A stretch of DNA of 56,552 nucleotides, filler included, from Sluysia triapertura (taxonomy: Eukaryota), in NCBI GenBank assembly GCA_046118255.1. It is 4 parts of 4 records of this genome, joined end to end, with 100 filler letters (N's around TTAATTAATTAA, not from the genome) between each part and the next. Parts side by side here need not be neighbours in the genome. Positions count along the whole stretch, not along the records: positions 24,608 to 43,340 come from JBJNIA010121972.1; 3 more parts are not named here. The stretch is one strand, 5' to 3'. A program made the translations under genes and the position numbers. A model generated the notes under the pieces. It was given only the letters and a program-made list of their open reading frames with translations, was not told the origin of the DNA and did no database searches. Numbering within the stretch: the first letter of the stretch is position 1; every line of letters begins with the position of its first letter. This document shows positions 3,403 to 52,068 of this stretch, piece after piece.

Positions 3403-3470
<68 letters not shown>
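3221..3470 (+). mobile_element. 3' end of a non-LTR retroelement-like repeat ending in an (ATT)n tail, copy 1
   Basis: Shares TTTTACAGGTA(C/G)GCCATTAGTAA..TATACTGT(G/A)AACGGACTCG with 11315-11530. Runs directly into (ATT)~22 at 3404-3470. Confidence 0.55.
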
Positions 3471-3471
<1 letters not shown>

Positions 3472-7685: not shown

Positions 7686-9751
7686 TTAAATTAACCTTTA
7701 TTCTAACTTTCTCACAATTATTATATATTCGTTAATATGAAATTTATCTATAATTTACAACACCTCTTGAAAAAGGTTGTTCAAAATTAAATAATGATTT
7801 TTAGTAAGATGTTACAATCTTAAATTAAAAAGACTACACTTAAATAAATTAAACTAGCGAATTAAGAATAGAAACAGAGCGATAAAGAAAATCCTTAATG
7901 TGGCAGAAATCCAATGGTGATGTATAGTATGAATTAGTTCCAACGAGAGAGTATGGATTGGTTCCAAGTAACAAAATCTTTCCACCAAAAAACTTCAATA
8001 ACGTCTAAACCATTAACATTATTGTGGGTTTTTTGCATATTTTAAGCATATATATATATATATATATTAACATTCTAGTAACCTAGAAAACTGATATAGA
8101 TGAAGAATTAAGATTATTTTATTTTTTTAGTTTTAAAATTTTATTTTCGATTATAATAATATTTAATAATTTCGGTTATAATAATAATAATAATACCGAA
8201 TCGATAATAATAATAATCAATAATACTTAATGCCATTTATATTATTTTAAAATTGTATTAATATATTTAACATAAAATCGATAATACATATACAATAAAT
8301 AAAATCTATTATTATTTACACAATACAACTAATAATAATAATCAATAATACTTAAAATTTATTTTTAGATGTTTATAAAATCTATTTTTAGCTATCTTTT
8401 TATGTTTACATAGAATAATTTGTATTGTCGTTGTTGTAAAGAATATCTTTTATCTTTTAGTTGTAATTTTGTGATAATTCAAAGAATATATCGAGATTCT
8501 GAATTTGTTTAATTATTGAGTTTTTAAATGATAATTTGTAAAACAAAAAAATTATAAAATACAACAAATTATTGTCACGAAAAAAAGACGTCATACTTAA
8601 ACTAGTCGAAAAATTTATAAAATTTAAGTAGAATCTTAATTCTTCCTTTAAAGAATAAAAACATAAAAACTACTTCAAACATAGAAAGTCTAGGTAATGT
8701 AGACATTTGTTTCTTCGATTTCCTCGATAAATATACTTTTCAATATACAATAATTACATTTTAAATAGCTCGATATGTAAGTACTCTTTGTATTTTGAAT
8801 TGTTTTATTAAAGTGTCCTTAAATATTTTTTTCTAAAAATTAATTTGAAAAAACAAAAATTATTTACTACGTACAATTATTAATAAATCAAACAAAAGTT
8901 ATTTACGCATAATTGAATTGTTAAAAATAAGTCATAAAACTGTTAGAATTAAATTACTTTTTGATAAACATAAAAATAAAAATTTTATTATTCTAGTTAT
9001 GAAATTTATTATGTATACGATCTAATTATCACAATTTTTATTACAAATTTATATATTAATTAATTAAATATATATTAATTAAATTAATTAAGTATTTATT
9101 AATTAAATATGATGGAAATGTTGTTTCATTATCGGATGCTTAAAGTTTTAAACAATTTTAGTTTTTGAGCAATTTAAACTTAAATCCAAGATTCCGAAGG
9201 TAATGTATTATGCAAAAAATTGTTTATAAAAATCATGAGATCCGTAATGTGTTAAAGTAAACATAACAAATTGTTTTAAATTTTCATAATTTTGTTGTAA
9301 TTGTACAACTATTAATAGTGCAAGTAAAGAATTGGATAAATTCATAATGACTTGATGTAAAATATTATTTCAAGGTTGTTCGTGAAGACTCCAACATCTG
9401 AAATTGTTTCGTAATCGACATTATTAAAGAAACCTTCGAGCATTTTGAAATCCTGTCATTCCTCATCGGTTCATTAAAAAAGTTAAGTTCAAGGCACCAC
9501 ATAAGTCTGACATTACAAGACATTACCCACGAAACAATTACAATAATTATCCAAAGCTATTTTCAATTGAATTGAATTTTCGAAAGAGCGGAAAATTAAA
9601 TAATTTATATTAAGCTGTCTGGTACCTTAATGTGTATACAACGAAAACTACTCGTTGATAATAATCAACGGATTCAAAACACCCTACATTATTCATTTAA
9701 AATGTAAAAGTTTTATTTCATTCAAATACAATTAACGAAATATTAATATAT

Positions 9752-10564
9752 TCAATTCTTCAAACAGGACAATAAACCTGAACTGTTAATCAATTCATTC
9801 ATTGCATTTGGATTTATTTTCGATTTTAAACCATTATTACTATTCACATTTATCTTATTACTACTCTTATTTTTAGCAGTAGCATTTGTTTTAGATTTGA
9901 TAGGTGCAACATTATTAATATTATTTGATTTTGGTTTTTTATGCTTCAAAATTTCACCACCAATACTTTTTGTTTTATTACTTTTCACTTTTCCATCATT
10001 TCGCTTAAACTTTTTTCGAGGCACTTCATTATTGCCTTCTTCGGCTTTTTGTAATTTGCGTTCCTGTTTTATTAATAAAGTTTTCTCGCGAACTTTACGA
10101 ACTGATTTGTCTCTAAATTACAAAATTAACATTTATTTTACTATTCAAAGTTTCAGTTTGTATGTTTAACAATAATTATTTTGAAAATAATTTAATATTG
10201 TTTAGTATTCTTGCTATTATTGGTAAATATTATTATTACAGAAAAATCCGATCATCGGAAATGGCACGATACAAACATAAAAATGAGTATTAAAAAAATA
10301 TCCATGTAAAAAAATTTACGAATGGAACGTATTTACGAATGGAACGTATTTTCGAATAACCAGAATAAACTGTAATTTTTTATCTTTTATCTTTTGTTAA
10401 AAATTCGCAAATTATAGTAAAACTCAAATAAACATACTTATATATAAGATCTTTCAGATTAATTTCCCTAGCTTGAAATGCACTAGTATCCATATGTGCG
10501 ATATCATTCATCTTTGGAATACGTAATAATCCAAAACTGTTCGCTAGTTGACCAATGTTTAATT
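9752..10564 (-). CDS. DDX55: ATP-dependent RNA helicase DDX55/Spb4, last two exons (10564-10438 and 10112-9752); upstream exons not found
   Basis: Canonical AG/GT sites with consistent phase. The spliced peptide ELNIGQLANSFGLLRIPKMNDI...INLKDLIYK|DKSVRKVREKTLL matches the DDX55 C-terminal motif (LDxxxLAxGFxLLRMPKMPEL...IPFKDKxREKQR), followed by a Lys-rich tail. Confidence 0.85.
10309..10356. repeat. 17-bp tandem duplication (TTTACGAATGGAACGTA) in the DDX55 intron
   Basis: Directly visible, about 2.5 copies. Confidence 0.8.
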
Positions 10565-10818
10565 CTAAAATCAATTTAAAGTATCATTAAAACAGAGTAA
10601 TGGCAAATAAGATACTTATGATTTAGTTGAAATTATATATACACATTATAATTATATTTGTTTTTTTGTTTAGAATAAAACATATATTACAATAGAGATG
10701 TTTTCATTTTGATTTTACAGCATTGAATATTTTTAACAGTTACTGGAACGGATTAACGACGTAAATTTTAAACCGATGATGATACTGCTGAAAAATATCA
10801 CACACTAAGAAGGGATTG

Positions 10819-10875
10819 TCAAGTATAATAGAGATAGTCAAGTATATAGAGATTATCAAGTATAATGGAGATACG
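10819..10875. repeat. ~19-bp tandem repeat TCAAGTATAATAGAGATA, three copies
   Basis: Directly visible. Confidence 0.8.
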
Positions 10876-11314
10876 GAATATCAAGCACAGAGCTGACACT
10901 CAAAGCGTCATAATTTTTGGAAGACTTTACAATTTAATCAAAATATTTAAAATATTTTATTATATAAATTCTTACATATGTCAATTAGACTGATATGGTT
11001 AAAGATGGATCATTGATCAAAGACCTTTGCGGAGTTTAATGTGTAATGGTAGATTCAATGATGACAATAAAATATCGTCGAGATGCATCATTAGAATATG
11101 TAAATAATACAGGGTTTTAACCCACATTTTGAATTTTTAAACATCAATTTTGAACAAAATCTCTTATGAATGTAAAGGTGTAAAAAATTTTATTGTACTT
11201 AATATTTTCAAAAATTGTAAAAAGATATTAACAATTATAAAAATAAAATTATTATTTAAATAATTATAAAAATTATAAATTATAAATTAAAAAGAATGTT
11301 CCAGAACAGGGAAG

Positions 11315-11530
11315 TGCTTTAACGAAGTCGACATAACCGACGATTTTTGTTTATTATTGTTTAAGTTAAGGTGATGAGCATTTTTTATACGATTATTCTT
11401 AAGAATTGTTTTACAGGTAGGCCATTAGTAAGTCGTATACTGTAAACGGACTCGAATAATAATTATTTATTTTTCTGCTAGTTATTAAGAAAATACCCAG
11501 CATGAATAATAAGTTTTATTATTATTACGA
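11315..11530 (+). mobile_element. 3' end of a non-LTR retroelement-like repeat, copy 2
   Basis: Homologous to 3221-3470 and ends in a short (ATT)n. Confidence 0.5.
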
Positions 11531-11943
11531 TTTTAACCCTTTAATTAATGTTCAGCGAATGATTTTTGTTTTCCGAATCCACCATGTTGATACAGGAATT
11601 AATGGATGAAACGTCGAAGTAAGTTAATTTCAAATTGCTCTTCGATATGTTCGCTGTATGAAGTAGTTGATCTAAGAATTTTGCATGCATCGAGTTTTAA
11701 AGCGAAAGCTCACAAACGATTTCCATTGTAGGAGTCCGTGAATATAGCTTGTTTAAATGGTTAGACAAAGGATGTTCAAAAGCACGATACAATTTGTCAT
11801 ACAGAATTTTAAAATTGATGCTATATTGGTGACGATTATGTTACCGTTTTATGCGAAATTTTTACACCTTAAAATATCAAAAAAACTTAAAATATTATCG
11901 CATCCTATGTAAAAATTTAAAATAAAATCAGAATTCTAGAGTA

Positions 11944-12043
11944 NNNNNNNNNNNNNNNNNNNNNNNNNNNNNNNNNNNNNNNNNNNNTTAATTAATTAAN
12001 NNNNNNNNNNNNNNNNNNNNNNNNNNNNNNNNNNNNNNNNNNN
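11944..12043. other. Assembly gap linker (N44-TTAATTAATTAA-N44)
   Basis: 100-bp N run with a six-frame stop insert, identical to the other two gaps. Confidence 0.98.
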
Positions 12044-12120
12044 TGGCAACCAATGTAATTCTTTGAGATAGGGTGTTATATGAGATCTTCTTCCAACTTG
12101 GAGAATTAATCTTGCTGCTT
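12044..12120 (-). mobile_element. L2/CR1-group LINE ORF2 fragment in inverted orientation
   Basis: Translates to AARLILQVGRRSHITPYLKELHWLP, the typical post-RT motif of L2/Crack ORF2. Confidence 0.85.
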
Positions 12121-12260
12121 AATATATAAACAATGTTAAAGAGAATGTCAAATTACTGGAAGATTATGAAATATTTAAAACGACAAAGTTCTTTTAATAT
12201 CAAAAATATTAAAATGAATGTTATGTTCTAAACGTCATATAAATTAAAAAATTATTATTG
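12121..12260 (+). mobile_element. L2-type LINE extreme 3' end (degenerate)
   Basis: AGAATGTCAAATTACTGGAAGATTATGAAATATTTAA is nearly identical to 35472-35508 (NVKLLEDYEIFK). Confidence 0.7.
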
Positions 12261-15200
12261 TAATTTAAAAATCAATGTTTATAATTAATTTTAGAATATT
12301 AAAACATTCTACTATCCGTTATTATACGTTTGACAATAAAGGATAAAAAAATTAAAAATTTAGGCATAAAGTTTGTTTATAAATTTATTATTGTGTATAA
12401 AAATTAATCGATTCAGTTACATTATTTTTAAAGAAGCATTTAAAATGTTATTTATAACATTTAATTTATGACTTATTTAAAAATAGATAAAATTATTGAA
12501 AATATATTTTCCCATTGTGTAAATATATCTATAAATACTCGTATATAATAAAACATTAATTAAGGTGTATCAAAGTTTAAAATACCTTATTTGCTGTCAC
12601 GTAAAATTAAAAAAAGGTTTTTCATCATACAAAATTTAATCTATTAATACATCTCTAAGTTAAATTGTAAATAAAATCTTAATTATATTTACATTTTTTA
12701 TTTATTAAAATTTTTATTTAATCTTTGTTTTATAATATTTTTAAAATAAATTAAAAATATTAAAAAGCATAGTATTTATTTATTTATTTTACTGATAAAA
12801 TGTATGTAAAAAATACATATTATATTTGCATTCATTTACGTTTTTAACTATTTATTATTAGTTTATGCTATTGTTAACCTTTCTGGTCAAGAAATTATCC
12901 GAAATGTAAAATTTATAATAATAACAATAAATAAATAAATAAATAATATGTGATCCATAGATAAAATTTAACAAATACCATAATTTATAACTATCAAATT
13001 ACAAAAAAATTGATTTTTTAAAAATAACTTCAAAACACGCAAAAGTATAATATTCATTTGAAATTTATTTAATTTTCATTAAATCTATTTAAATTAAAAT
13101 TTTTAAAAAGAATTTAATTTAAATAATTTATAAAAATTATTCACTCGATATTTTTAAATAAATAAATGAAATTGTGATAAAAAAATTCCGTTTCCCTAAA
13201 TTCTATTATCATGACAAAGTATTATTATTTTATGTAACTATTTTTATGTAACAAAATTAAATCAGCAATTATTAAAGCAGCTTTTCACAAAATAATTTTT
13301 TTGTATTTATTCATAGATTCATACTTTTATAAGTTTTGTATGTTAGCTTTGTAAAAAAAGATAACGTAGTAAAACCAGGATATAGAGACTATTTTATTTG
13401 TTATAAATACACTTTGATATAAATTTATTTTGAAATAATAAATAGCAATAAATAAATTTTTAATAATAATCATATTATTATTGCGAAAAATTGAACATGT
13501 TTTGCAATATAAACCAACAAATAAATAAGTATAATCAGATAAATATTTGAATAATAAATTAAATATATTAATCATTAATTAATATTTTGTAACAGCTTTC
13601 ACATTTGTTTAATTTTTTTCTACATCATCAATTTTAAATCTCCTGTTTTATGGCATTCTTTATTTCCATGATATAAAAATATTTTTCAGTTATTATTTAC
13701 AATTATTTATGTTATATAATATTTCAAAATTTATAATTATATTATTTTTTTGCGATATTCTTAATCGTTTTAATTAATAAATATGTAGTTGTTTCGTTAT
13801 CTTTTTTCAATAATTGTTGCAATTTATGTAGATCTAGAAACCAATCAAATTAATAATGTATTAGTTAACATATTCTTAACAAACATAACTAAATAAAATC
13901 GATTACAATAAATGGTAATATATAATATTACAATGATGACATTAATATAAATGAAAGTAATTTATCGAATAATTAATTTTATTATGTTCTTAATAAAACG
14001 TTAAACGATTATTTATAAAATAATTATCGGTAGATTTTAACGAACATTTTAAATGTAAAACATATTTTATAAAAATTAGATTTAAATAAATATTTTTTAA
14101 ATGACAGTTTTCAGATAGATGATAAGGATTTAAATCGAAAATTTAAATTTAAATCGAAAGTTTGTAAATTTAAATCGAATATTAATACAGTGTGATACAA
14201 CAATCAATGAATCAATCAGTGTTTTTGAAATTCTTATATAAATTGAAATTAAAGCACTGGTAAAGAAACGAGAAACTGTTCGAATAAATATGACTTTTTT
14301 GAGTAGAGATTTTGGTAATATTATGATACAATGGCCTTAAAAATCAATTACTTAATATTATTCACTTGTTAAAATTGAATCAATTCGCATTTGTAAAGAA
14401 TTGATCGCGAAGATATGCTTTGTTCAAAGCAGCATTATAATATTTAATTACTTTTAAATCCATAATTCTATTGTCGAGAATTACAGAATGAAATTTATGA
14501 CGATTTTTTCAATTTGAAATACAAATCTTTCTTTACATTGAACGCGTAATTGTTAAATTTTTCCAAATTATTGTTTAACATTTTTGACTCTAAATCGGAC
14601 CAGTAAAAGCATCCTTAAAGTTGTTATTGCTTCAAAATCATCGAATTTTTAGAGCGTATTTCAAAACTTTTATCTTTTACATTGACATTTACTAATTTTC
14701 TGTTCTTCTTTTCTTTCGTAATATATTATTCCTTATATTTATTTAATTACATTCTTTTCTCTACATTTATTCATTAAATAATTTCTATATTATTAATTAA
14801 TTGCACTTAATTATTTAATTTACTTGATTAATTTGCTTGATTAATTTTATAGACATTCTTTTATTTATTTAATTTTTAAACATTATTCTATATTATTATT
14901 TAAAAGTTTTGTTTTGTATTTTTAATTTCAAATAAATAAGCAATTTATTTTAATTTATTACGAGACTAAATTAAATCAATTGTTTTATATTTTGTGAAAT
15001 TATATTTAAAAACATTCATATAATTTAAGCGCCATGTCAACATTGTAATATTTATATATTTCAAGATTTGATTTGATGAAAATAATTAAGTATGGCCCTA
15101 TCAACGTTTACTAATTTACCCATAGCTCCTAACTTATTTTCATGAATGAAACTGGACCTATTAATATTTTAATCTTTTGAATAACTTTAATTGCAGTATT

Positions 15201-22730: not shown

Positions 22731-24507
22731 AAACAATAATAAAATCTCTTAAAAAGAAAACTTTAATATTAACAAACTTAATATTTTTAAAATAAAACTA
22801 TTATTTTAATAATAAATAAATTAATAAAATTAAAGACCTTACCCTAAGCATGGATTTTCATATCTATCATCATCATTGTCATGGCTATTATTTTGTTATT
22901 GTATTATTGTGTTGTAGAAATTTTGAAATCTTTATTTTATACTCTCTCATCATCCAATCAATTCACAATCTCACAACCAAACACTCTTCCACACAAATAA
23001 TCCTAACCTCTTTGAAAATCAAACCGACAATGACAACTCTGACATCTACATGGTACGGTCTGTCAAACTTTATTAGGTACAAAATATAGAAATCTGATTA
23101 TTATCAGCCATCATTTCCTTTTACTCTACTCAGTCTATTTTTACTTCAATTACTTCTCACACTAAAATAACAATCAGCAATACTGTTAACATACATAAAA
23201 ATAATGAATTTAATTTCACATTCTATTTTTAAATTAATTTTCTATTTTTCACACCCAATTTTCTAATGAAAAATGTTTTAAGGTTCTTATTCTCAAACGA
23301 ATCTTTTTACAAAAACTTCGAACTCACTTACAGATTCTCCTTTTCCATAGCAATCACCTCTTATTCCATTCATCACATTTGCATCATTCTAAGTATTAAA
23401 AATTCAACATTCCATAAATAAAAATTAATTAAAATTTGACTTTGCTCAATATTAAGGATTTCCTTTCAGTCAAACCATACCTTCATCGAAAGGTCTTTTC
23501 AAAACAAATATATACACAGTTTCAAACTTAACGTAGCAATCCGCATTCAAAAGTTATTCACAAAAACGTACTTTTTCTTAATTAAGTTAATTACGATTTT
23601 TAATTAATTAATCTATTTTTAGACTTAATCTTATTCTATGTTTAAAGGTTTTATTAAGGTCCTAAAGTCCCTTGTCTACTTCTTTATGTAAATTATTATT
23701 CTTCATACCAATAACAATGATTTTATTTCTCAAATATTTTAAAGATTTTAAATACTTTATAAGGATATCAAAGGATCTTAAATGTTTATGTAGGGTTTAA
23801 AGTTTAGTTAACCACTTCGTTGCTCTACACCTATATATTCGTAAAAATAATATGTCTCACATGCTCAAAGCATGTATTTTCGCATCATGTTTTAAAGTGG
23901 TTTCCTGCTCAACACGACTATTTACGCCATATATTGCAAGCGGATGGAAATCTAAGAGCCCTGCATATTTGATATTTTGCACCTTTTGAAAAACTTTCAC
24001 AAAATTTCAAAACGTGTTGCGCAGCGAAAGGGTAAAAGTCAATAAGGTCTTAAATGATCTAAAAGTTCAAGGTTTTAGGAGGTTTTATAATGTTTCTGGA
24101 GGTTTTATAAACCCGTCTCAAGCTACCACAAAGTCTTATATAGGTCTTTGGAACTCCAAGGTATTCTTTAACTATTATAGATGTCTTTTCATTTGCATGA
24201 TTCTTACTCCAACAGTGTTTATAATATTCTATCAGCCCGGTAATAGCAACATATATATTGTTGAAATTTTGCTAGTTTATATACCAATTACCAGTCATTG
24301 GTATTCAACCACGTTTTATTCATTTTGAATTTTAGTACTTACACTAATAAGTAACTACAATAAAAAATTGTTTTTGTTGTCTACTCATTTTAATGAATAT
24401 GTTGCGATTAGCTAAATGTTGCGTCTTTAGAACTTGTTAAATATTAAATTCACTATTAAAGTCTTATTCAGTTAAAATCTTAATAATTTCAATAGTTAGT
24501 ATACTGA

Positions 24508-24607
24508 NNNNNNNNNNNNNNNNNNNNNNNNNNNNNNNNNNNNNNNNNNNNTTAATTAATTAANNNNNNNNNNNNNNNNNNNNNNNNNNNNNNNNNNNNN
24601 NNNNNNN
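24508..24607. other. Assembly gap linker
   Basis: N44-TTAATTAATTAA-N44. Confidence 0.98.
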
Positions 24608-24785
24608 TCGTAATCACTTGTACTTTAAAGTAGATTACGTAATAGTGTAACATAAAAATTAGTAATTGTTAGTAACGATTAGTGGAAATCGGTGCATGCT
24701 GATCTAACTACTAAACGTCACCCAATCAGAGAACAGAACTACGAAATGCTAATTTTTAACTCTTCAACGATCTGATTGGGTGGAC
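24608..24785 (+). other. Cluster of three stem-loops upstream of an orphan ORF (unit C)
   Basis: CGTAATC/GATTACG; TTAGTA..GATTAG/CTGATC..TACTAA; and CACCCAATCAGA (24719-24730)/TCTGATTGGGTG (24771-24782). The last is related to hairpin 2 of units A and B. Confidence 0.6.
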
Positions 24786-24876: not shown

Positions 24877-26437
24877 TTGATTAAAAAAAAATTCAAGATG
24901 GTTGACAGCCAAAAAACAATAAATTTTCTCAAAGGCAAATTAACAATTAAAAAGTTGGACCAAAAAAATGAACTTCAAATAATGATGATGAACAACAGTA
25001 TCAATATTAATAATTCCGTAAAATTGAGTAGTACCATTAATGATTTAAATTATAACAACAATGTTTGTTCTGTTGCTAATAGAATTAGATTTTTCGAATC
25101 ACGAAATGATGATAATGATCGAATTAGGCAACCGGCAATACGAATTAATTCAATGAATCAATCAGACAGTTTAAGTTCAGTAGGAATACAATCTCAGAGA
25201 CAGAGTGCAAACGATGTAATTAGTGCAAAGCAGAATGCAAACGATGTAATTAGTGCAAGGTAGAATGCAAACGATGTAAATAGTATAAAACAGAATGGGA
25301 ACGATGTAATTAGTTCAAAGCAGAATGAAAACGATGTAATTAGTGTAAAGCAGAGCGCAAACGATGTAATTAGTGTAAAGCAAAATGCGAGCAATGTAAT
25401 TAGTGTAAAGCAGAGTGTAAATGATGTTATTAATGTAGAGCAGAATGTAAATGATTTTAGTAACGCAAAGCAGAGTAGATGACGCTAGATACGATCCTGA
25501 GATGTTGACTAATGAGACGAAAGATGCTTACCAGAATTCAGATTTTACTCATCATGCCACCCATGAGGAACCAGCTTGGTACTCGCCGGAGAACTCTCAC
25601 CAGATTTTGAATCTCGCCATTGGCGCAATTTATGAAGAATCGCATTGGTATAGGTCATACGATGCTCGTTAGGTTTTGGAGAACATTATTAATACCATAT
25701 TCGAAGTGCACAGCTTCAGCAATAATCAGAACATTAAAAGTAACAATTTAATTTTAAATTTTATGTATACTTTCGTTCATAGTTGCCATCATTACATTAT
25801 TTATTTTAGGTTATTTGCTTTCCCTACAAACGAAAATGGATCCAGAAATGAAGGAGTGTGGCTTTCACTAAAAACAATGTTTATAACAGTGCAAAATTTA
25901 TATAGTTTAATATATTATAACCTTATTTGTGTTAAATCTTTACTTCTATATGATAATCATAAAATTCAAAATGAAACTAAGTTAAATAACAATAAAACTC
26001 TAAAAGTTGTTAAGACCAACGATCGAACAGTTCTAAACTATTTCAGATGATACAATAAAAGAAGGTTCAATAATTTGACTCATGAAGTTATGTATAGTAA
26101 CCACCTAGAGGAATTTGAAGACCATACTCATCAAGTAGAGAACGAACCTTTATACTTAAAATTGAATTTTAACTACATTAATGCATGTACTGCATACAGA
26201 TTCGGATTTTACGAAATTTTAAAAGTCTTCTAATCGTTTCTACAGAATAATACATTACGTAATCGTTCAATTCTTGACAATGATGTAAGCAAATATTATG
26301 CTCTTGATCTTGAACCTTATCAACGTTTTTCCTCTCCATATAAAATCAAGCCCTCGAAACTTCTTTTTATACTAAATCAATCCAATACACTACAAACAAT
26401 ACTTTTCAACCCCATACAGTTTACAAATTTCTTTTAA
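24877..26437 (+). pseudogene. Decayed intronless orphan ORF (~520 codons) with a 10-aa tandem repeat
   Basis: One frameshift (~25475) and in-frame stops at 25261 (TAG), 25670 (TAG), 26048 (TGA) and 26231 (TAA); otherwise open to 26437. Confidence 0.6.
25201..25476 (+). repeat. 30-bp minisatellite, ~9 copies (CAGAATGCAAACGATGTAATTAGTGTAAAG; encodes QNANDVISVK)
   Basis: Directly visible and in frame with ORF 24877. Confidence 0.95.
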
Positions 26438-28417: not shown

Positions 28418-28610
28418 TGTGGTGGCCCAGCCTACACCTACCTATATATCACATCAATAATATTCATCGACACAAACCTCATTACAAAAAATTACATAAT
28501 AAGTCTCATCTACATCACTTACAACATTACAACACTCATCCTTATAAAATCTCAGATGCCTATAAAATCCTTTTTGCTGTCATTTTTAGATCAAAATAAA
28601 ACACAACTCA
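28418..28610 (+). mobile_element. Short LTR-like, C/A-rich segment starting TGTGGTGGCC
   Basis: Same terminal decamer as 30018, 49868(-) and 50468. G-poor strand with AATAAA near a CA end. No TSD or PBS seen. Confidence 0.4.
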
Positions 28611-28919
28611 TTGTCATCTTGCCATTTTTTATCTGTGTATTACAATCTTATTTTATATTTTTTCGTATTTTATAATTTTTTAAATTTCTTTCTGGCAAAA
28701 ATTAATGCAACAAATATCAAGGAAAAGTCTAAGGCTATCGGCATTACTACAAAAATCAATTGCATGGCCTTGGATTTAAAACAGAAGATTCATATGAATA
28801 CACTAGTTTTACTAACTCACATTTTAAAGATAGTTATTATCATTCACCTAATAAAGTTGTATATACGCAGACAAATAATGACGATTCCTTAAGTGAAAAG
28901 TTAATACATAATTTGACAT

Positions 28920-29185
28920 TAATAGAATCATTACGCAATATAAATGACAGTTCATGTATTGAAGAACGAAATGAACGTAGAAAATGCAAACTTGGCTAGA
29001 AGAGATGTTCTTTTTACAGGAAAAGAAATTATCGTTCGGTTATCAAGCCATACAAATGAAACTGGAGCCCAAGCTGTTGCCAGAACATTTCCTGAGTATG
29101 CCACGACGACTGTAACAGTTCAAGCAACATTTAGGAATTTGAAGGATCTTGTGACAATTGCAGGTATAAATGATTTACAAAATAC
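28920..29185 (+). pseudogene. DDAH: Dimethylarginine dimethylaminohydrolase (DDAH) pseudogene fragment
   Basis: ENANLARRDVLFTGKEIIVRLSSHTNETGAQAVARTFPEY...NLKDLVTIAG versus DDAH [40 protein letters not shown]...HLKSxxSMAG. Key residues are altered (GG to RR, catalytic His to Asn) and the fragment is truncated. Confidence 0.85.
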
Positions 29186-30770
29186 GACTGGCATGACACA
29201 CTAGATGTGATATTACAAATAATGTTTTTTAACCCTAAGAATACCATTGGGTCCACTTGGCCCAGTATTATTTTATAAAACGATTTTTTACTGTAATATA
29301 TTTTTAATTTGATATTTGTTGACTTATTTGTAAAGCACAATAATTATTAAATATATGAAAATCGTCGTATGAATTCTATTGGTATTCTGTGGAAAATATT
29401 TTCCTAGGTTTCTTAGGATTAATACCCTATAATATACGGAAACCTAGAAAAATAAGACAATACGTCAAGAAAATATTTGTATTTTGGTGTATTTTTGGAC
29501 CTTGATATGTACTGGATGTATGAATAATAACGTGGGTTGAAAATAATAAAAATATTAAGTTATCCTCAGTTAACTTTTAAATCAATAAAAATATTAGTAT
29601 GAATCAATAATAATTAGTATGAAGCTATATTTTGAATTAAACTTTAAATAAAATTTTCAGTAATCTGTGTATAATTTATAAACATTTTCCATTTACATTA
29701 TATATTTTTTAATAGTTTTATGTTTTAATAAGATTTTAAGATTGTGACTAAATTATTAAAAGATTTAATTTTTTTAAGTCTTTAAGTTTGACATTGTTTT
29801 TGATTAATAGATTTTCTGTTTGATCTGTGATTTATACGTTTTTTTTATCATATTACTTATTTTCTGTGTTTAATAAGTTTGATTGATTTCATCAATAATA
29901 AAGACAACAATAAAAAATATTTTATTAGTTAATTTAATTATTAATTACAGTAATAAAATTAAGAATTAATATATTCACAATAAATTACAGTTATAATTGC
30001 TATAAAGTAACGATCTTTGTGGTGGCCACCCCTTAATATTATCAAAATTTTATAAAAAGAACCCTTAACATTCTAATAGTCACATATCACCTTTTCTGCA
30101 CTCATAGAACAAATTATCTGTCAACGTTAAAATTTATTCACAATCTTGTAACTTACACTCCACATTTACAACCAATACTACGAATTACATCAACAAATCT
30201 ATCAAAAAACATAACTCGACATTCAAAACAATCACATTTGAAATCATCCACCGTACACCTTCGAATCAATTTAACATTTGTCATTACATAATCATCAACA
30301 GAATGCCTATCACTTAAAAACAACAAATAAATAAATCACATAAAACAATACACATTAACCTTTCAAAAAATAATAAGAATTGTATTGCAATCTATCTTTT
30401 CACATTTATCAAACTACACTCTTCTCAATAGGTTCTTTATTCACGATCTTCCAATATTCAAATATTACTCTCAACCAAAAACATAAGTCAATATCTAAAA
30501 GTTCATTCTCATCTTCTACATTTTTCTGCACTATGTAAGAAATATTATCATACCTAGAGACGTTAACCACATATATAAAATTCATTTAAACTAAGCTTTA
30601 CTTAAAAATTTTTAGTTTCAAAATATGTCTAGAAGTTTTATAAGAATTAGAAAGATCGTGTATCGTTGATCGTTTTAGTGTTAATAATAATAACAATATT
30701 GTTATTGTTATTATTATGAAGTTATTTTATTTATTTTATTAACATAAAATCCATTAAAACATTGTTTATA

Positions 30771-30831
30771 CCATCACCAGTGTTGACATTCTTCATTACT
30801 GTCATCTGATTTTTGTCAACACTGATGATGG
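30771..30831 (+). ncRNA. Conserved hairpin 1, copy A
   Basis: CCATCACCAGTGTTGACA / TGTCAACACTGATGATGG, 17 of 18 positions paired. Function unknown. Confidence 0.5.
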
Positions 30832-30881
30832 CTAATCACTCGGTGTAGTTGTGTTATAAATTTTCTACTCATATTACTAGC

Positions 30882-30934
30882 CATCCAACCAGAGTTGATT
30901 TCATAATATTTAAACGAGCAATTTTGGTTGGATG
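30882..30934 (+). ncRNA. Conserved hairpin 2, copy A
   Basis: CATCCAACCAGAGTTG / CAATTTTGGTTGGATG, 16 bp including two G-U pairs. Confidence 0.5.
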
Positions 30935-31020
30935 ACCAATCAACGATCATCTTACTAAAAATTGTTATTTAGTAAAAATTTATCTTTCACAATTAAAGCT
31001 ACATTAACAGCAAAATCTTC

Positions 31021-32595
31021 ATGCTCATTATGTTTATGGATACAATAATTTTATTATCGGATCAACTCCCAAATGACTTTGATAATCAAATGGAAGTGGA
31101 AAATTTAGCTGAATTAATTTTAAATACTGTTAAAAACGTCTATTCTGGTAAAGTGAACGACAATCTATTTTTAGATATTACCAACAAACATATAGTATTA
31201 TTTGTTATGCCCATTTATTCAGAATACTATAAAGTTTACAAATATACGAATCTTAAATTGATACCTATCTCGAGCACATATTCGTCTATTTATTCTGAGA
31301 ATGAATCAGCTGATTCACTTGATGATTACGAGTTTATTTTAATGTCGCCTTTGGCTTTCATTCGAGATGCCATAGAAAATTTTAGAATAAAATCTAACAC
31401 GATTATTGATAGTGGATTTCAATTTGTAACGATTCAAGATCCAGAATATCATAATTCTACCAATACAATAGAATCTATCTCTCTACTAAATATTCTGCAA
31501 GTTCTAGTCACTGTAATCGATCTGGTACTACAAATTTAAAATTATACTCGTTATGTTGCATCACGAAATTAATGGATAATTTGGTTGAAATATCTAATAA
31601 GCAGATTTCAGTCGAAGATAATGAAATTGATTTTATATTCATTCATTTAACTTTGCATGAAGGAACTGATGTATTCAAACTGTCCAATAATCATGAGTTA
31701 CCTTATTATTTTGTAATTAATTTAGTTTATGTTGAAGTAATTCAGATTCAGAAACAAAAGTCAAAGATTGCTAAATTATTTCAAAACAATGATGATTCTC
31801 TTAGTTAAACTTTTACAAAGAATGTTTAAGAATAAGTTGTTTTGATTTTGTAAAAGAAAACCCTTTAATCATGACATTACATGCAGCATGTATAACAAAG
31901 ATATTTAAATCTATTGTCACATTTCAAAAACGTGCAGAGTTATTCATTAACGTTCGTGGCATTCGATATTTAAGAAGACTATCTCCTATGTGTTCAGTAA
32001 ATTACGATCCAGAAATTTGGTTAGAATTATATCATTGGAATATTCATAATAATAATTACTTAACTGAGGCCAAGGTAAAAGACAAAACTAAGGTTGAAAT
32101 TACACACTTAACTCGAGAGTTACTAAAGGTAATTGAGAAATATTTAATTGACAACGTAATTGGATATGAGATCAGTAACAAACACTCCGCAATTGTAAAT
32201 TTTTCTTTTATCCTAAATTTTTTTATTTAGACGATCTTTCTAAAGCAAAGCTGATTGAAATATAAAGGAATACAGTGGCAATTTTTACAATTCTTAGTTT
32301 AATATCAAATAAAAGTTTTGTAAATATTCACTTTTTGTTTATTTATTTAAATAACGCTTCAATAAATAAATTTCTTAATGTACCTAAATGTTTAATCTTT
32401 ACAGAATATGGCTTTGCTAATTTTAATAAAAGTTACATATTATTTACCTTCAGATTTAAAAGACCTTTTTATAGACTGAGAATAACTCAGGCAATTTACG
32501 GACAGACTTATTTAAATCTAGCTAAGATAAATTATGTAAACTTAAATTTATTGTTTTCAAAGTATAACTTAATCCTAACAAATTGGTGTCAATAG
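31021..32595 (+). pseudogene. Decayed intronless orphan ORF (~520 codons) of element A
   Basis: Four consecutive same-strand ORFs (31021, 31572, 31871, 32275) tile the region in shifting frames and end in NWCQ, as does the ORF of element B. Confidence 0.55.
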
Positions 32596-32683: not shown

Positions 32684-33061
32684 TTAGAATATTATTGATT
32701 TAAAAGCAGTGGAATGGCACACATAATGAAACAATTCTCTTGGTATTTGGCCACATTCATGTTCAATTGCTTCACTCAATTCAGCGACTGTTGCAGGTTT
32801 ATTAGTGTATACTTTGTTTTTTAGGTATCCCCATAAGAAAAAAGCTAGCGTTAAGTCTAGTGAACGGAGAGGATATTCAACAAAACTTCTTCGTCCTATG
32901 CACCTGTATGGCAAGAGTTCATCAAGGAAGGACCTAACATCGAGATGGTAATGTGGGGTGCCCATCTTACTGAAAATAAAACTCTTCATCTTCAGAGTCC
33001 ATTTTGATGCTTGGCATAACAATTATTTTTGATGTGAGTATATATTTTGGGACACCCTGTA
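32684..33061 (-). mobile_element. Internally deleted Tc1/mariner-superfamily DNA transposon (TIR plus catalytic C-terminus)
   Basis: TA-CAGGGTGTCCCAAAA TIR at 33061-33045. FYFQ*DG..PHYHLDVR...IGR...PLRSLDLT..FFLWGYLKNKVY matches QQDGAPPH...WPPRSPDLTPLDFFLWGYLK. Confidence 0.9.
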
Positions 33062-41785: not shown

Positions 41786-42333
41786 TGTTTAAATTGATTT
41801 TTTACGTGGTTAAATTCTGTTTTATAATCTTAAAATAAAATTATAAGTAAATCTAAAATTTCTGAGTAATTTTAAACGATACATCTTAAATAAAAACGTA
41901 AACGAAAGAAAATGCAATAAATAAATTATTTTATTTGCATAATGTTTGGAAATGACAGTTATCTTATTTTTTTGAGCCTTAAGAACTATTAAATCAACTA
42001 AATAATGTTTTATTAAGGTAAAATTAAAAAATACTTTATTCCTTTCAATCTTAAGAGTTATAAAATGAATTAAATCATATTTCATTGAGATAAAATAAAG
42101 AACGATTAATTTATTCCTTAATATGCAAATCCAAATGACATCAAATTTAAAAACATAAAGAATTTAATTTTTTTGTAAAAAGTTAAAACTCCAATAAAAT
42201 GTTTCAAAACATTAGAGATATCAAAATGAATTTGATGACTAAAATAAAATCGAAATGAATGAGTACGGTAAGTAATAATATGCTGGAAATCAGTGTATGT
42301 ATTTAGATGAGTAGACGTCGACAGAATCTGATT

Positions 42334-42735
42334 GGCAAGTGCACCAGATGCACATGCTTTCAGAGCTGGATTATTATGCTTTAATATTTCAATCAACGGA
42401 GGAATCGTTTCTTCCTTCAAAGCTCTTTCTCTATCTTCATTACTCATACAAACATCGATAATGCTTTTAGGAGATTTGGCACGAATCATTTCATTTTCAT
42501 GATACAACAACTGAGTAAATGTTTTAATTGAATCATTTTCCAAAGCATCTTTACGTCAAACAGAAAACAAAAACGAAGACAATCGAGTATAATAAGTTTT
42601 ATATGATCAGATTGTTCTTGTATTTTAATTAACAATTGTGCCACTAAACCAGTATTAATAATTGCTTCTGCACCAAAATAATGCTCAGAAATCATTTCTA
42701 AAGTCAAATGAACTAATTTTTTTTATTGGTTCTAA
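42334..42735 (-). pseudogene. RSPH14: Radial spoke head 14 (RTDR1, armadillo repeat) pseudogene fragment
   Basis: LTLEMISEHYFGAEAIINTGLVAQLLIKIQ..IILDCLRFCF..V[frameshift]DALENDSI..FTQLLYHENEMIRAKS...EETIPPLIEILKH...KACASGAL matches RSPH14 as recalled (GAQEIISKGLISSLVWKL..ILDTL..EAL..NIRSKA..VIPILVHLLKD..KSNAAGAL). There is a 1-nt frameshift near 42551 and both ends are truncated. Confidence 0.8.
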
Positions 42736-43340: not shown

Positions 43341-43440
43341 NNNNNNNNNNNNNNNNNNNNNNNNNNNNNNNNNNNNNNNNNNNNTTAATTAATTAANNNN
43401 NNNNNNNNNNNNNNNNNNNNNNNNNNNNNNNNNNNNNNNN
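43341..43440. other. Assembly gap linker
   Basis: N44-TTAATTAATTAA-N44. Confidence 0.98.
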
Positions 43441-46429: not shown

Positions 46430-48839
46430 CCAAACCTACTGAGGGAAGAGTTTTCAACAGATCACAACTCTACCTCTATCCACTTCATTCAAACAATCCC
46501 AACTGCACCGTGCAAATTACGTCGTCGGGAGATATCTCAAGAAGTCCGCGCACAAACAGAACAATAATTTCTCGACATGGAGAAACAAGGAATTGTGCGC
46601 CGATCTTCTTCATCTTGGGCCGCACCCCTACAAATAGTAAAGAAAAAAGACGGGTCAATCAGGATATGCGGTGACTACCGAATGCTAAATAAAGTCACGA
46701 TCCCTGACGCACATCCTATGCCTTTAATAACAGATATTTTACATCGGTTCTCTGGCTGCAAAATATTCTCTTCAATTGATTTAGCGAAAGCTTACCATCA
46801 AATCCCGGTACACTCAGAGGATATCGCGAAGACCGCAGTTACTACACCTTTCGGCTTATTCGAGTACACAAGAATGCCGTTTGGTCTTCGAAATGCTGCT
46901 CAGACCTTCCAGAGATACATAGATCATATTCTTCAAGGTCTACCATTCGTTGCAGCATATATTGATGATATTCCCATAAACAACATCTCGACCAAGTTTT
47001 AAAACTGCTGGCAGACCACAATTTAATAATCAAATAAAAGAAATGCCAATTCTTTCAATCTAAAATTGCATTTCTTGGCCACGAAATCTCTTCTGACGGC
47101 ATCGAACCATTACCAAGCCGTACAGAAGTAATAAGGAATTTCCCGCAACCAGAAACAGTCACGCAAATGCGGAGTTTCCTTGGCCTAGTCAATTACTGCC
47201 GCAGATTCCTACCAAAACTGTCTGAGATCTTAGCACCACTAACTGCCTTATCATCCGGAAAGAAGACAAGAATAATAAATTGGAATGGAACTTCGTTAGC
47301 TGCATTTCAAGAAATCAAAAATCATATTACCAAAATGCAGAGTCTAGCGTTTCCATTACCAAATGAAAAATTCATATTAACAACTGATGCGTTAAATATA
47401 GCAGTTGGTGCAGTTTTAACCCAATATCACAACGAAGTGCCACGACCAATCGAATTTTACTCACACAAGTTATCCAACCAACAAACACGATATTCTGCTT
47501 TTGATCGTGAACTTTTGGCAATATACCTCGCAGTGAAACATTTCAAATACTTGCTAATGCCAGTGAAATTTACAGTTCAAACAGACCACAAGCATTTGTT
47601 ATTCATCTTTTCGATAATTAACCCTTCTCCAAGGCAACAAAGGCATATCAGCTGTTCAATTTCGATATACAGCATATCCCTGGACAGGAAAACATAGTCG
47701 CTGAAGCCTTATCACGAGTTGGCATCAGTAGCATCGAATTTCAGTCGATATTTTCAATCGAGGATCTAAAAGGTGATCCTCCTTCAGCAGAAGATATATC
47801 GAAGTTTTCTGCTACACCAACGTTACGAGGAGTATATCTTTATCACCAATTGTCAGGAATTTCACGACCAGTTGTTGGCCCAAACTTGAGGATTAAAGCG
47901 TTTGAATTTATTCACAATACAACGCACTCAGGATCCAAATCTACATACGAAATGTTAAAATCCAAGGTGATTTGGCCTTTCTTGCGGAAAGATATTAAAA
48001 ATTGGGCAAAATCATGCCTCACCTGCCAGGCGGTGAAAACACACAAACATACCAAACCAGAAATCCTGCATTTTCCAACCGGTCAACTTTTCGATACAAT
48101 TCATGTGGATATCGTCGGTCCTCTTCCAAATTCCAAAGGATATACATACATCTTGACAATCATAGACCGACATAGTCGTTGGCCGGAAGCGTTTCCAATG
48201 CGCTCCATATCTACTGTAACAATAACTAACATTCTTGTAACGCATTGGATCGCAAGGTTTGGTGTGCCTAAGAGAATAATTACCGATCAAGGCAAACAAT
48301 TCCAATCTGAGCTTTTCAACAGTTTATTAAAACATCTAGGAAGCTCCAGATTAAGAACAACAGCCTATCATCCGCAATCAAATGGAATGATAGAGCGTTT
48401 TCATCGTACACTGAAAAGTTCACTGCGCGCACTTTCAATTAAACATAATTGGTTGGATGCACTACCTCTCATATTACTTGGTTGGAGGAATATTCTACAC
48501 TCATCTACCGGATATTCCCCAGCTCAAATAGTTTTTGGTACAAGTACAATACCACACGAAGAATACGTTTTCTCTAAGCATTTAAGACAATATATAAGCG
48601 AATTAAACAAATCACCGATACATAATAATTCATCGCGTGTATACATATCACAAAATATCACCGATAGTGAATATGTCTGGTTGATCGTAAAAAATCCTCA
48701 TTCGTTGCAGCCAAAATATATAGGCCCGTACAAAGTAATTAATATAAATAAGGAGAACCAAACTGTTATCATCTCAATCGTTGGACAACTGGTGCAACAT
48801 CAAACCAGCGACAATTCTAATCGACAAGAATCAAAATGA
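46430..48839 (+). pseudogene. pol: Ty3/Gypsy pol (RT, RNase H, integrase), CsRn1-like, disrupted; gag/protease and 5' LTR not seen
   Basis: RT: SSSWAAPL..VKKKDG..RICGDYR..MPFGLRNAAQTFQR..YIDD. RNase H: LTTDA..AVGAVL..YSAFDRELLA. Integrase: HHCC zinc finger, HVDIVGP, TDQG, NGMIERFHR and a C-terminal YIGPY. Frameshifts and stops are present. Confidence 0.95.
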
Positions 48840-48969
48840 CCCGAAAAAAGTAATCAAATCAGTCACTTTTGATACCGGAGCTACTATACAATTATTCAAT
48901 AAAAGAACCTGTAACAATCGAAAACGTTAAAAAGGTCTCTTTCACTACACCTTTACGCTCCGCGTCTCT

Positions 48970-48979
48970 AAAGGGGGCT
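48970..48979 (+). other. Polypurine tract of the Gypsy element
   Basis: AAAGGGGGC immediately before TG at 48982. Confidence 0.7.
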
Positions 48980-48981
48980 TA

Positions 48982-49432
48982 TGTGTGGAAATCTCAAAAT
49001 TCATCACACTTCATCACATAAAGACATCACTCACTTACACAGGTCATTAAACAAACTACTAAATTCATTCAAAAAACAAACATAATCATTGCACATAATT
49101 ACCATAAACTACAGCTATTATTATTAAACAATATATATAATAATTATAATCATTAGTGTTATATAATATGATTATCAAATATCTTTTATAATAACTTTAA
49201 CAATAAATTTCATAATAAAATTTCGTAACATCAACAATGCCAGTATTAATAAACATAATAACCACGTTATTGTTATCATTATTATTTCCTTTATCATTAT
49301 TATTTCCTTTATCATTATTATTTCCTTTATCATTAGTATCAATCTTTCTATATATATAAAGTATATAAATATATAAATATAAAGTATATATTTAGCATCT
49401 GTTATAGAATTTGATCTGTTAACAACTCCAAC
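48982..49432 (+). mobile_element. Gypsy 3' LTR (TG...CA; right end approximate), containing an 18-bp tandem repeat at ~49274-49336
   Basis: Begins TGTGTGG after the PPT, is C/A-rich, has TATATAAA boxes and ends ...ACTCCAACA. Confidence 0.6.
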
Positions 49433-49473
49433 AGTACAGAATTTTATCCTACAGTCATACAGTATTATAATAG

Positions 49474-49868
49474 TGTGAGTGTTTTTATGGGTCTTTTTCT
49501 TCTATTTTATTTTTTTATTAAAAAAGTTTAATTTCGTTTATGTTAAATTATTATTCTTTAAAGGCCCTAAGCCTAGTTTATTAATTCATAATTTTAATAG
49601 TTTTTTTAATGGTTTTAAAATTAAACGTTAATTGTTCGTTTATAATTAAATGTTTGACGTTTTCCATTAAAATATAAAGTTAAATACTAATAAATATAAT
49701 TCTTTAACATTTTATAAGCAAAAGTGCCCCACAAAAGAGTATTTAAAATGATATGAAATTTTACGTTTGTCATGTTTGATGGTATTAAGCGTTGTGAAGT
49801 GTTGAGAAGAGTGTTCTTGTTATGTAATGGTAAAATAAAATTGTAAAGGTAATAGGTTGGCCACCACA
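49474..49868 (-). mobile_element. Solo-LTR-like segment TGTGGTGGCC...CACA
   Basis: Shared terminal decamer, C/A-rich strand and TGTG/CACA ends. The TSD is not convincing (AATAG vs ATTAT). Confidence 0.45.
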
Positions 49869-51775
49869 ATTATTCAATCCGTAATTGTCATTTTCTCCAT
49901 TTTTATTATTTGAATTCAAGAATCATTCAGTTACATTAACATAGGTAGGTTCATCAAGACTACAATAATCTGCTTTCGTTAAGAGGTGATGTTTCATAGT
50001 TATCCATCAAGAATCAAGATTCCATTTTTATAGGATCAATAAAAATATTTTTATTAATTAAAACATTAAATTTTTATTAAATATTATTATTTTAAATAGT
50101 ATCTTTTTGATTGGTATCAATGACAAATAATTTGATGGTTTTACACTGAGCACATAACAAAAAGTTGCGATTCTTATCAATATGTATATCCCGAAAGTAA
50201 TTACGGAAATTAATATAAAATGTGTTATGATTATGATACAACACAGTTTCTGGTTGAATTATGAACGTAACTCATTGGATTATCTTCTAGTTATATGTAA
50301 AATGATTTTTGAATGTTGTTCTCATTTCGAAAAGACTGATTATTTTTTCAAATATTTTTTTCTTATTTCTAGTAAAGATGCACCGTAACTGGCAAATGAA
50401 CTCGAATTTGATGATCCGCTAAATAATTGAATATACTTTGACATTCTTTTGTCGACGTCATCATATATGTAGTGGCCAACACTCATAATCATTAGAAAGT
50501 TATAAAAATTTAACATCGAAAATATAATCACACTCAACATTATCAATTTAAAACAGTTAGTTCACAAAAAACATAACATCCAAATCAATCACATTTCACA
50601 CCATCGAATTACATTAACTGATTCATCATAAACAATATTCGACATTTATAGTAATTTAACAACATCTCAAACAATTCATCTATACTCTCAACCATTCACC
50701 TTACACTATATTTTGACAATCCATAACATTCATTCAATATGTTATCTACTCAAACCAAACCACAATCATACTCAACATTATCAATTCACATTAGCTCAAC
50801 TTTCACATAAACTTAACAATAAACTCATTTGAAATAATACATCTAATATTCCCAAACACTTCATCTTACACTACATTTTGGCAATCAATATCTAACATTA
50901 GAGAACATCCATTAATAGCTTATTCTCTTAAACCGAACCACAACCATAGACTTACAACATAAAAACCATAAAACAATGAATACCATTTCACAACATCAAC
51001 AAATATACTTGAATATGGAAAACACTTACTTCACATCTTCGAATCAGGTGCATTTCAAATACACTATTCATCAATGCATAATCATCATTAGCACAGAACA
51101 TCAACACTAAACACCAAAAAAAATAATCACACAAAACATAGCATAATAGCATCCTTAGTATACAAAGAGTTATATTGTAATTCCCCATTCAAATTCAATA
51201 AATTACAACCTTTTCAATAAACCTTTTTTTTCATGATATTTCTATATTTAAACATCGTTTTCAATTATAAACTTCAATTAATACTTAGTACCTTATTCTA
51301 ACATTCTCCATTTCATTTTGCTACTCAGATTAAGTATAATACCTTCAAAGATTAATTATATTTACTAATTCTTTCAAAACAATCTTTACTCAGAAATTAA
51401 ATTTATTTCAATATGTTAAAATTCAATAACGAGATTACCAAAATCTAATACAGCTTTAAAGAATTCATACAATGAAGCAGCAACGATACCTCGTGCACCG
51501 TATACCCCGTTATCGTTGCTCCTTCATACAATATCAGTAATTTTATTTCATTTTATTTCAAATATTAGAAGTAATAAAGATTAAGAGAAAAGATCATGTT
51601 AGATTTATTTAAGAAAAGAAGTTTTATGTGTATTTTTATATTTTTTTCGTTTTATTAATAATAATAATAACAATATTGTTATTGTTATTATTAATACTAT
51701 TGTTGTTATTATTATTATTATTAATAACTAAATAAATTATTATAAAAATTTTTATTCAATACAAAAATTGTTACT

Positions 51776-51838
51776 ACCACCACTAGTGTTGACGTTTTTA
51801 ATCATGACTGTCAGTATCTCGTCAACACTGATGATGGT
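51776..51838 (+). ncRNA. Conserved hairpin 1, copy B
   Basis: ACCACCACTAGTGTTGACG / CGTCAACACTGATGATGGT. The 3' arm GTCAACACTGATGATGG is identical to copy A. Confidence 0.5.
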
Positions 51839-51887
51839 TTTCCACATCTCACTTGCTTTTATATTGCCTTTAATCAACTCTCTATTT

Positions 51888-51947
51888 GTCATCCAATCAG
51901 GCTTAATGTTAATCAACAATAAGCTAGATTAGCACGGATTGGATGAC
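51888..51947 (+). ncRNA. Conserved hairpin 2, copy B
   Basis: GTCATCCAATC / GATTGGATGAC, a perfect 11-bp stem. Confidence 0.5.
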
Positions 51948-52068
51948 CAACTACGTTGAAACAAAACAAAAACTGATCTAAAAATAAAATTTAGAGTCAC
52001 AAATTAATAAATGAGGTGGAGTTCTTTTATTTGCTAACGTAACTAGACGCTACAAATATTAAAAAGTA

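Follow-up and report, generated by a model that had tools for sequence, protein, structure and literature searches.

Sequence analysis of a genomic stretch of Sluysia triapertura (NCBI GenBank assembly GCA_046118255.1) identified a pair of hairpins that are real, conserved inverted repeats of putative function, carried by what is probably a long LTR of gypsy type. The analysed stretch, referred to here as the window, comprises 56,552 nt in four joined parts and has a GC content of approximately 24% (76% AT); the 100-base linkers between its parts (11944-12043, 24508-24607 and 43341-43440), which consist of N runs around a 12-base stop cassette, are artefacts that appear as false repeats. The hairpin pair occurs in copy A at 30771-30936 and in copy B at 51777-51947, the latter being located via a common 17-nt arm and alignment.

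Hairpin 1 shows the same geometry in both copies, with a length of 61 nt, an 18-bp stem and a 25-nt loop (30771-30831 in A, 51777-51837 in B). Hairpin 2 measures 57 nt in A (30880-30936), where an 11-bp core can be extended on the plus strand via G-U pairs and is followed by a CCAAT at 30936, and 60 nt in B (51888-51947), where the 11-bp stem is perfect and each arm contains a CCAAT. The linker between the two hairpins amounts to 48 and 50 nt, respectively, and the pair spans 166-171 nt from first to last stem base. A preliminary description of copy A had given lengths of about 55-63 nt, in agreement with the 61, 57 and 60 nt found here, and had noted G-U pairs in hairpin 2 of A, of which there are two in the longer extension that is absent from B; its end point at 30934 had to be corrected, as the stem runs to 30936. 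Ten folds (five hairpins on both strands) gave z-scores of −3.0 to −7.0, and each surpassed 200 shuffles or came close to doing so. Hairpin 1 of A, which is the most stable 90-nt fold of the whole-window scan, reached −27 kcal/mol (z = −5.4) on the plus strand and −32.7 kcal/mol (z = −7.0) on the minus strand. By z-score, hairpin 1 prefers the minus strand and hairpin 2 the plus strand. Unpaired cells number 1/58 on the minus compared with 4/58 on the plus strand, where a C.A mismatch takes the place of the minus-strand G-U pair, and the strand bias in pairing events (3 vs 1) is not significant.

Two further structures accompany the pair. An AT-rich palindrome of 35 nt (30678-30712) is identical in the alignment of A and B and is followed at about 30738-30749 by a presumed TATA-like AT stretch, and a third hairpin with a 16-17-bp stem (51472-51527) is found 5' of the palindrome in B only. 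The latter lies in a segment (51462-51531) with a flanking 10-bp direct repeat and a GC-rich loop, which could represent a tiny insertion. Where contig depth is low, 560 nt to the left of copy A, a lone AT-rich hairpin of 16 bp was also observed (29397-29454).

Comparison of the two copies revealed that sequence identity is concentrated in the stems. Stem columns agree at 51/58 positions (88%) vs 44/108 (41%) for loops and linker (Fisher p = 1.5e-9, post hoc), the latter comprising 12/25 in loop 1, 18/48 in the linker and 14/35 in loop 2. The stems also exceed the upstream homologous block (240/340; p = 0.006, post hoc), so that, measured against this block, the stems are better conserved than the rest of the repeat and loops and linker less well. 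Among 29 pairs, 23 retain the same standard pair, two show double changes, one shows a one-sided change and three contain an unpaired cell. The double changes consist of the innermost pair of hairpin 1, A-T in A and G-C in B, and one pair of hairpin 2, C-G in A and T-A in B, while one of the three pairs with an unpaired cell is the C.A mismatch at stem position 7 of hairpin 1, which is common to both copies. These substitutions and the retained mismatch had been described before and were confirmed by alignment, as was the invariant 3' arm of hairpin 1, in which 17 nt are identical between A and B. The accompanying statement that the 5' arm and loop differ holds for the loop, whereas the 5' arm differs at just 3 of 18 positions.

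As two copies cannot give significant covariation, the A/B double changes are suggestive only: the covariation score was matched by 130 of 500 shuffles and is not significant, and two restored double changes have a probability of about 0.006 in a crude model of seven independent hits. Double changes in stems could also come from template switching between inverted-repeat arms. Among the 40 of 505 variant rows listed for the window in a contig comparison at 80% likeness (run X1), three fall into the area of hairpin 1, all of them in flank or loop. Two joints in the same run connect the 3' arm regions of hairpins 1 and 2 across unlike sequence, as would be expected if the arms were conserved islands. 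A covariance model built from A and B found nothing above 13 bits in the window, on either strand, other than A and B. A hairpin-1 pattern gave no match in metagenome contigs or in prokaryote genomes; a shorter version matched 24 viral loci, which is about the number estimated to arise by chance, and no BLASTN match to the hairpins was obtained. Likewise, a search of Rfam, as proposed in the preliminary description, returned no matches over the hairpins at E ≤ 5 and four weak matches elsewhere.

A candidate third copy, site C (24717-24784), lies 110 nt right of a linker gap and forms a hairpin-2-like 12-bp stem with inverted CCAAT, for which homology is a candidate explanation only. CCAAT-containing stems occur twice in the window and in none of 300 shuffles, which indicates that site C is non-random. 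There is no hairpin 1 beside it, and it scores 10.6 bits (E = 3.1) with the A/B covariance model, for which reasons we left its double change uncounted. The earlier claim of two independent double changes in hairpin 2 is thus upheld for the change between A and B, whereas the second change depends on the kinship of site C at E = 3.1. An ORF at 24899-25455 starts about 115 nt after site C and reads into a tandem array in which a 30-bp unit is repeated 8.5 times. Another strongly C-rich tract (22800-23700, skew down to −0.62), situated on the left side of the linker gap that precedes site C, is without an LTR start motif and gave no significant alignment to A or B.

Both hairpin pairs are embedded in a longer repeat. 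Copy A covers 986 bp on the plus strand (30018-31003), as delimited by terminal motifs, colinearity with B and contig depth, the right end being less certain, while copy B covers 1587 bp (50468-52054, plus strand) and is likely a solo LTR whose U3-like part contains internal duplications. The copies are colinear from their starts at 30018 and 50468 through a C/A-rich tract, the AT palindrome and both hairpins to a common terminal hexamer at 31003 and 52054. In A, the C/A-rich, U3-like tract occupies 30018-30660 on the plus strand, with a GC skew of −0.56 and 240/340 identical positions to B in one block; this block (A260-620 vs B600-960) scored 193 against a maximum of 104 in 200 shuffles, and the first 120 nt scored 42 against a shuffle maximum of 37.5, falling to chance level without the first 11 nt. 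None of eight frames of the tract (table 9) reached the Pfam cut-off, a single DUF match being at chance level (E = 0.05), and an origin of the C-rich tract as a mitochondrial insertion or coding remnant was rejected on the same result. A candidate poly(A) signal of A, ATTAAA, is located at 30992-30997 (plus strand), 12 nt before the end. In B, an AATAAA (52006-52011, plus strand) is found 49 nt from the end and another at 51983, and A lacks about 41 nt that are present in B between the position of ATTAAA and the terminal motif. Hairpin 1 starts 233-278 nt and hairpin 2 ends 67-107 nt from the LTR end, both of them 5' of the poly(A) signal.

The A/B repeat is a dispersed multi-copy family, as evidenced by sharp depth edges and by the contig counts over A. 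Summed contig depth over copy A (30005-30972) in run X1 amounts to 1,762-15,077, excluding a microsatellite bin (49,902), compared with 126-182 in four bins to the left (29400-29883), 391 in the edge bin and 190 in the bin right of 30972, while single positions of A are covered by 35-63 contigs; summed depth in this run is no copy number, and the run may be non-independent of the window's source. A second run (X2) contributed a small share (0.05) of mostly short, low-depth pieces. The sequence right of A is also multi-copy in X1, with 6-18 contigs at the positions listed within 31129-32263, and one contig of about 82% likeness bridges 30880-31126, from hairpin 2 into this sequence, for which reasons copy A may head a larger non-autonomous unit. 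A chain of plus-strand ORFs right of A (31021-32595) has diverged copies in X1 and could be the interior of a non-autonomous element; its ORF at 31021-31536 matched no Pfam family, none of 1.84 billion representatives and no Atlas entry at ≥ 0.9. Further right, a fragment on the minus strand at 32684-33060 shows raised contig depth in X1 and no Pfam match, and carries a motif by which we take it to be mariner-type transposase-like. No homologue was found for a 480-aa ORF at 33096.

We consider it likely that the A/B repeat is an LTR, and the available sequence features suggest that A and B are probably LTRs of the CsRn1 type within Ty3/gypsy. Terminal motifs of CsRN1 elements are given as TGTGGYG (5') and MSYYAMA (3') in the excerpted Table 3 of PMC3601003. 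On the plus strand, A fits these motifs at 7/7 and 7/7 and B at 6/7 and 7/7 positions, compared with 5/7 and 6/7 (A) and 6/7 and 6/7 (B) in reverse. The 5' motif has two exact plus-strand sites in the window, one of which is A, while the degenerate 3' motif has 136 exact plus-strand matches. A 10-nt matrix derived from 42 distinct starts behind polypurine tracts in 38 of 79 related loci, a few of which are probably not LTR starts, ranked 49868 (minus), 30018 (plus, the start of A, in a tie) and 28418 (plus) first in the window and 50468 (plus) seventh; the only LTR start of the window that is preceded by a polypurine tract (48981) fell outside the top 20. The last 9 nt of B equal the last 9 nt of the LTR of one related locus (L083), where they precede the primer site, and the same 7-nt LTR end occurs in at least five related loci. 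AATAAA is present in 11 of 26 related LTRs, in eight of these 11 at 43-67 nt before the end, and the reverse orientation of B has no AATAAA at this distance. The plus strand of A and B is C-rich (skew −0.36 and −0.41), as are the gypsy pol (−0.15) and the LTR start following its polypurine tract in the window (−0.51) and 18 of the 26 related LTRs. The reverse LTR orientation is less likely with respect to motif fit, AATAAA position and skew.

The related loci were identified through a broken Ty3/gypsy pol in the window (46568-48839), which contains RT, RNase H and integrase families in three frames and is followed by a purine tract (48970-48977) and a TGT with a C-rich stretch at 48981. The 79 loci, which share 35-48% identity with this pol, derive from the best 80 of at least 502 confirmed relatives, and no relative was found in viral contigs. 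Many of the loci show LTRs in pairs, a primer site of the tRNA-Trp type and a duplication of 4 bp in the flanks, all of which are CsRn1 clade features in the portion of PMC2582038 available, and the window pol, placed via its relatives, is likely of the CsRn1-clade type. A second LTR-like start points in the opposite direction from 49868, so that two elements seem to be arranged tail to tail (46568-49868). Another C-rich stretch (28418-28700) opens with the same LTR 5' motif, shows no convincing alignment to A or B beyond this motif, and is followed by short unexplained ORFs at 28733-29204.

A and B thus resemble the LTRs of the CsRn1 clade (CsRn1, PwRn1, AgCR) in their terminal motifs, in the AATAAA about 50 nt before the end (B), in the C-rich sense strand and in sharing a window with a pol that has such relatives. 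They differ in length, since their 986-1587 bp exceed the 137-424 bp of 26 related LTRs by a factor of 2-10 and compare with 146-381 bp in the accessible text of PMC2582038, and in carrying long GC-rich twin stems. None of the 26 related LTRs has a comparable hairpin pair, any stem scoring ≥ 9 occurs in three of them, and the A/B covariance model found no match in the 79 related loci. Neither copy is adjoined by a paired LTR, a primer-binding site or a polypurine tract, features of a complete element that a solo LTR would not be expected to show, and there is no tRNA gene in the window. Flanking 4-mers, read as a target-site duplication, agree at 3/4 positions for B and at 1/4 for A at 31003, while an exact 4-mer follows an alternative end of A at 30949. 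The repeat family may already be catalogued.

Several further features were observed in the vicinity and elsewhere in the window. A decayed Rab27-like sequence (52223-52730; E = 5e-9 to Rab27A) is found about 170 nt right of B and could be a retrocopy beside the LTR. Pieces of host genes on the minus strand (9752-10583 and 42118-42722) comprise the C-terminus of a DEAD-box helicase, presumably like DDX55, and ARM-repeat frames with weak Arm and HEAT matches, presumably like RSPH14; no homologue was found for the ARM-like exon. The pol, the ARM-like exons and the Rab27-like fragment, together with the metazoan range that PMC3601003 gives for the CsRN1 clade, make an animal host likely. Two other dispersed repeat families are present (6263-6445/37830-38033 and 7631-7705/20296-20368/38142-38213), the first with its own long hairpin.

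As the explanation for the hairpin pair we favour, tentatively and at somewhat less than even probability, R-region RNA stem-loops of an unusually long LTR that would act like retroviral TAR and R hairpins. The hairpins would fold in the sense transcript of the element, within the last 230-280 bases of the LTR. A Pol II start approximately 30 nt after the AT/TATA-like stretch would fall at the foot of hairpin 1, which would then form a capped stem-loop at the 5' end, where TAR or the R hairpin of MLV is situated, while hairpin 2 would occupy roughly +110 to +170, followed by the poly(A) signal at about +210 to +235. Given this start, R would comprise about 250 nt with two stem-loops. As genomic RNA carries an R at either end, the pair would modulate transcription, the processing of the RNA and the choice of poly(A) site, and first-strand transfer would copy it. 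In B, a TATAAAA at 51741 lies 36 nt before hairpin 1, while A has just an AT-rich stretch, and because the genome is 76% AT the TATA role of this stretch is weakly indicated.

Selection on pairing would account for the retention of the stems and of the 61-nt length in the face of drift in loops and linker. The C.A mismatch, retained although the inner pair covaries, also speaks for pairing, as wholesale conversion of one arm by the other would erase it. Selection on base pairing in a cis-acting structure borne by the element, as the preliminary description had proposed, is plausible, although that description overlooked the LTR-like repeat context. Stem-loops of the R region are well established in vertebrate retroviruses. 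The excerpted text of PMC3601003 ties residual conservation in long R regions to stem-loops, with both arms favoured, and the available part of PMC2664473 describes a stem-loop just 3' of the start site and two R stem-loops in lentiviruses; an R with two stem-loops is thus known from lentiviral and other retroviral LTRs. In common with the TAR and poly(A) hairpins of HIV-1 and the R stem-loops of MLV and HML, copies A and B have an approximately 60-nt hairpin at the putative start site, another hairpin 5' of the poly(A) signal and conservation of both stem arms (PMC2664473 and PMC3601003, as far as excerpted). Unlike these systems, the loops of A and B are large (25-38 nt) and unconserved, AATAAA lies outside hairpin 2, and the element is a retrotransposon without a known transactivator; the start site is predicted, and no sequence similarity to the retroviral hairpins is claimed.

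Alternatively, and with a probability that we regard as low but substantial, the inverted repeats could be DNA sites in a U3 promoter, with hairpin 2 representing inverted CCAAT boxes of the NF-Y type, hairpin 1 a dyad protein site, the transcription start further downstream, a short R, and the double changes arising via template switching between the arms. CCAAT is found in both arms of hairpin 2 in B and in site C and once right after the stem in A, yet both stem CCAATs of A are lost via one compensating double change. The lack of CCAAT in this stem, which the preliminary description had held against such boxes, is correct but does not dispose of them, as a CCAAT follows directly at 30936. 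Protein binding to DNA would fit the arm spacing of hairpin 1, which stays at 25 nt despite the divergent loop sequence, and the observation that no strand wins, hairpin 2 favouring the plus and hairpin 1 the minus strand. Template switching is described as extending the identity between quasi-palindrome arms in excerpts of PMC3820800, and binding of NF-Y to LTRs is likewise reported in literature available in part. The pairing, at 11-18 bp, reaches well beyond a pentamer, the common C.A mismatch stayed uncorrected and the TATA-like motif of B lies just 5' of hairpin 1, all of which argue against promoter sites. With respect to the CCAAT/NF-Y sites of LTR promoters such as ERV-9/LTR12, the likeness consists of CCAAT within an LTR and 5' of an A-rich stretch, whereas here the boxes form an inverted pair within an 11-12-bp dyad and are gone from the stem of A.

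The strand preference of hairpin 1 also bears on a more doubtful proposal, in which a minus-strand transcript, made by Pol III or Pol II, would be cut so that the invariant arm of hairpin 1 yields a ~22-nt RNA, in the manner of foamy viruses, which release theirs from U3. On the minus strand, this arm becomes the 5p arm, in which A and B agree at positions 2-18, the C.A mismatch turns into a G-U pair and the z-score of hairpin 1 improves, whereas hairpin 2 has the better z-scores on the plus strand. A minus-strand stretch of 195-197 nt without TTTT covers both hairpins in both copies, which is a post hoc observation on non-independent copies (1069 of 11111 windows of 177 nt are free of TTTT), and a run of four to five T follows hairpin 1 after 9-11 nt in both. 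B has a minus-strand TATAAAA 20-26 nt before hairpin 1, but there is no consensus TATA before hairpin 2 and, by general Pol III box patterns, no B box on the minus strand; a lower stem is missing and the stems are just 18 and 11 bp long. The comparison with the Pol III-driven dumbbell pri-miRNA cassettes of foamy viruses (BFV, SFV, FFV) holds for two ~60-nt hairpins in an LTR and, on one of the strands, for a T-run that follows the unit and an invariant 5p arm, but the A/B cassette would be antisense to the LTR, its stems are short, and with its linker of 48-50 nt the unit of about 170-195 nt exceeds the 111-128 nt given for foamy dumbbells in the accessible part of PMC6950176. High copy number and repeat overlap are, in the excerpted PMC12539619, red flags for microRNA calls. 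Still less probable is a neutral origin, in which the hairpins would be by-products of fold-back or template-switch events in reverse transcription with symmetry maintained by mutation bias alone: B does have an extra hairpin and internal duplications absent from A, the AT palindrome is identical as well and the comparison comprises two copies, but homogenisation of arms within a copy leaves the likeness between copies (stems 88% vs 41%) unexplained, as it does the retained hairpin length. We assign a similarly small, marginally lower probability to a mobile element other than an LTR retrotransposon, such as a non-autonomous DNA element or a Helitron-like one, with the hairpins as subterminal ssDNA signals. 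The atypical length, the absence of a clean target-site duplication from A, the multi-copy sequence right of A and the Rab27-like pseudogene right of B would agree with such an element, while the presence at either terminus of motifs specific to the clade, the spacing of AATAAA and the occurrence of the same 5' motif at 28418 (plus) and 49868 (minus), in a window with such a pol, point to an LTR.

Further RNA classes were considered and rejected or disfavoured. A canonical pre-miRNA processed by Drosha and Dicer requires a lower (basal) stem, which was found in none of six hairpins on either strand, as pairing over the 13 adjoining positions does not exceed 6 in total or 5 in a row. Mature and star reads, homogeneous 5' ends and offsets of 2 nt are further criteria given in PMC12539619. 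The pre-miRNA reading of the preliminary description is accordingly disfavoured, the hairpins being repeat-borne, without a lower stem and without an Rfam match, and the plus-strand 3p seed differing between the copies. Hammerhead ribozymes, including those of retrozymes, combine a CUGANGA core with stem II, GAAA and an NUH cleavage triplet. The invariant arm contains CTGATGA, but no GAAA follows within 120 nt 3' in either copy, the bases before stem I are AG, and there is no Rfam match. In self-priming of the Tf1/sushi type, an 11-nt primer site directly after the LTR end pairs with the 5' end of the transcript; here, 67-107 nt separate the 3' arm of hairpin 2 from the terminal motif, on the inner side of the latter, and such a loop was rejected.

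No such pair is described in the literature surveyed on gypsy R-region stem-loops and CsRn1 LTRs, in which subscription sources are thinly covered, or in that on LTR-derived invertebrate microRNAs and Pol III miRNAs of Metaviridae. Should the antisense small-RNA reading prove true, the pair would give a retrotransposon the equivalent of the microRNA cassettes in foamy-virus LTRs, which would be a real surprise, and a small RNA with a fixed seed could act on its own family or on host mRNAs by silencing or tuning them. The many copies of this LTR family make covariation testing cheap, and if selection at the RNA level is true, as in the R-region reading favoured here, the hairpin pair would represent retrovirus-like RNA control in the long LTR family of an invertebrate retrotransposon.
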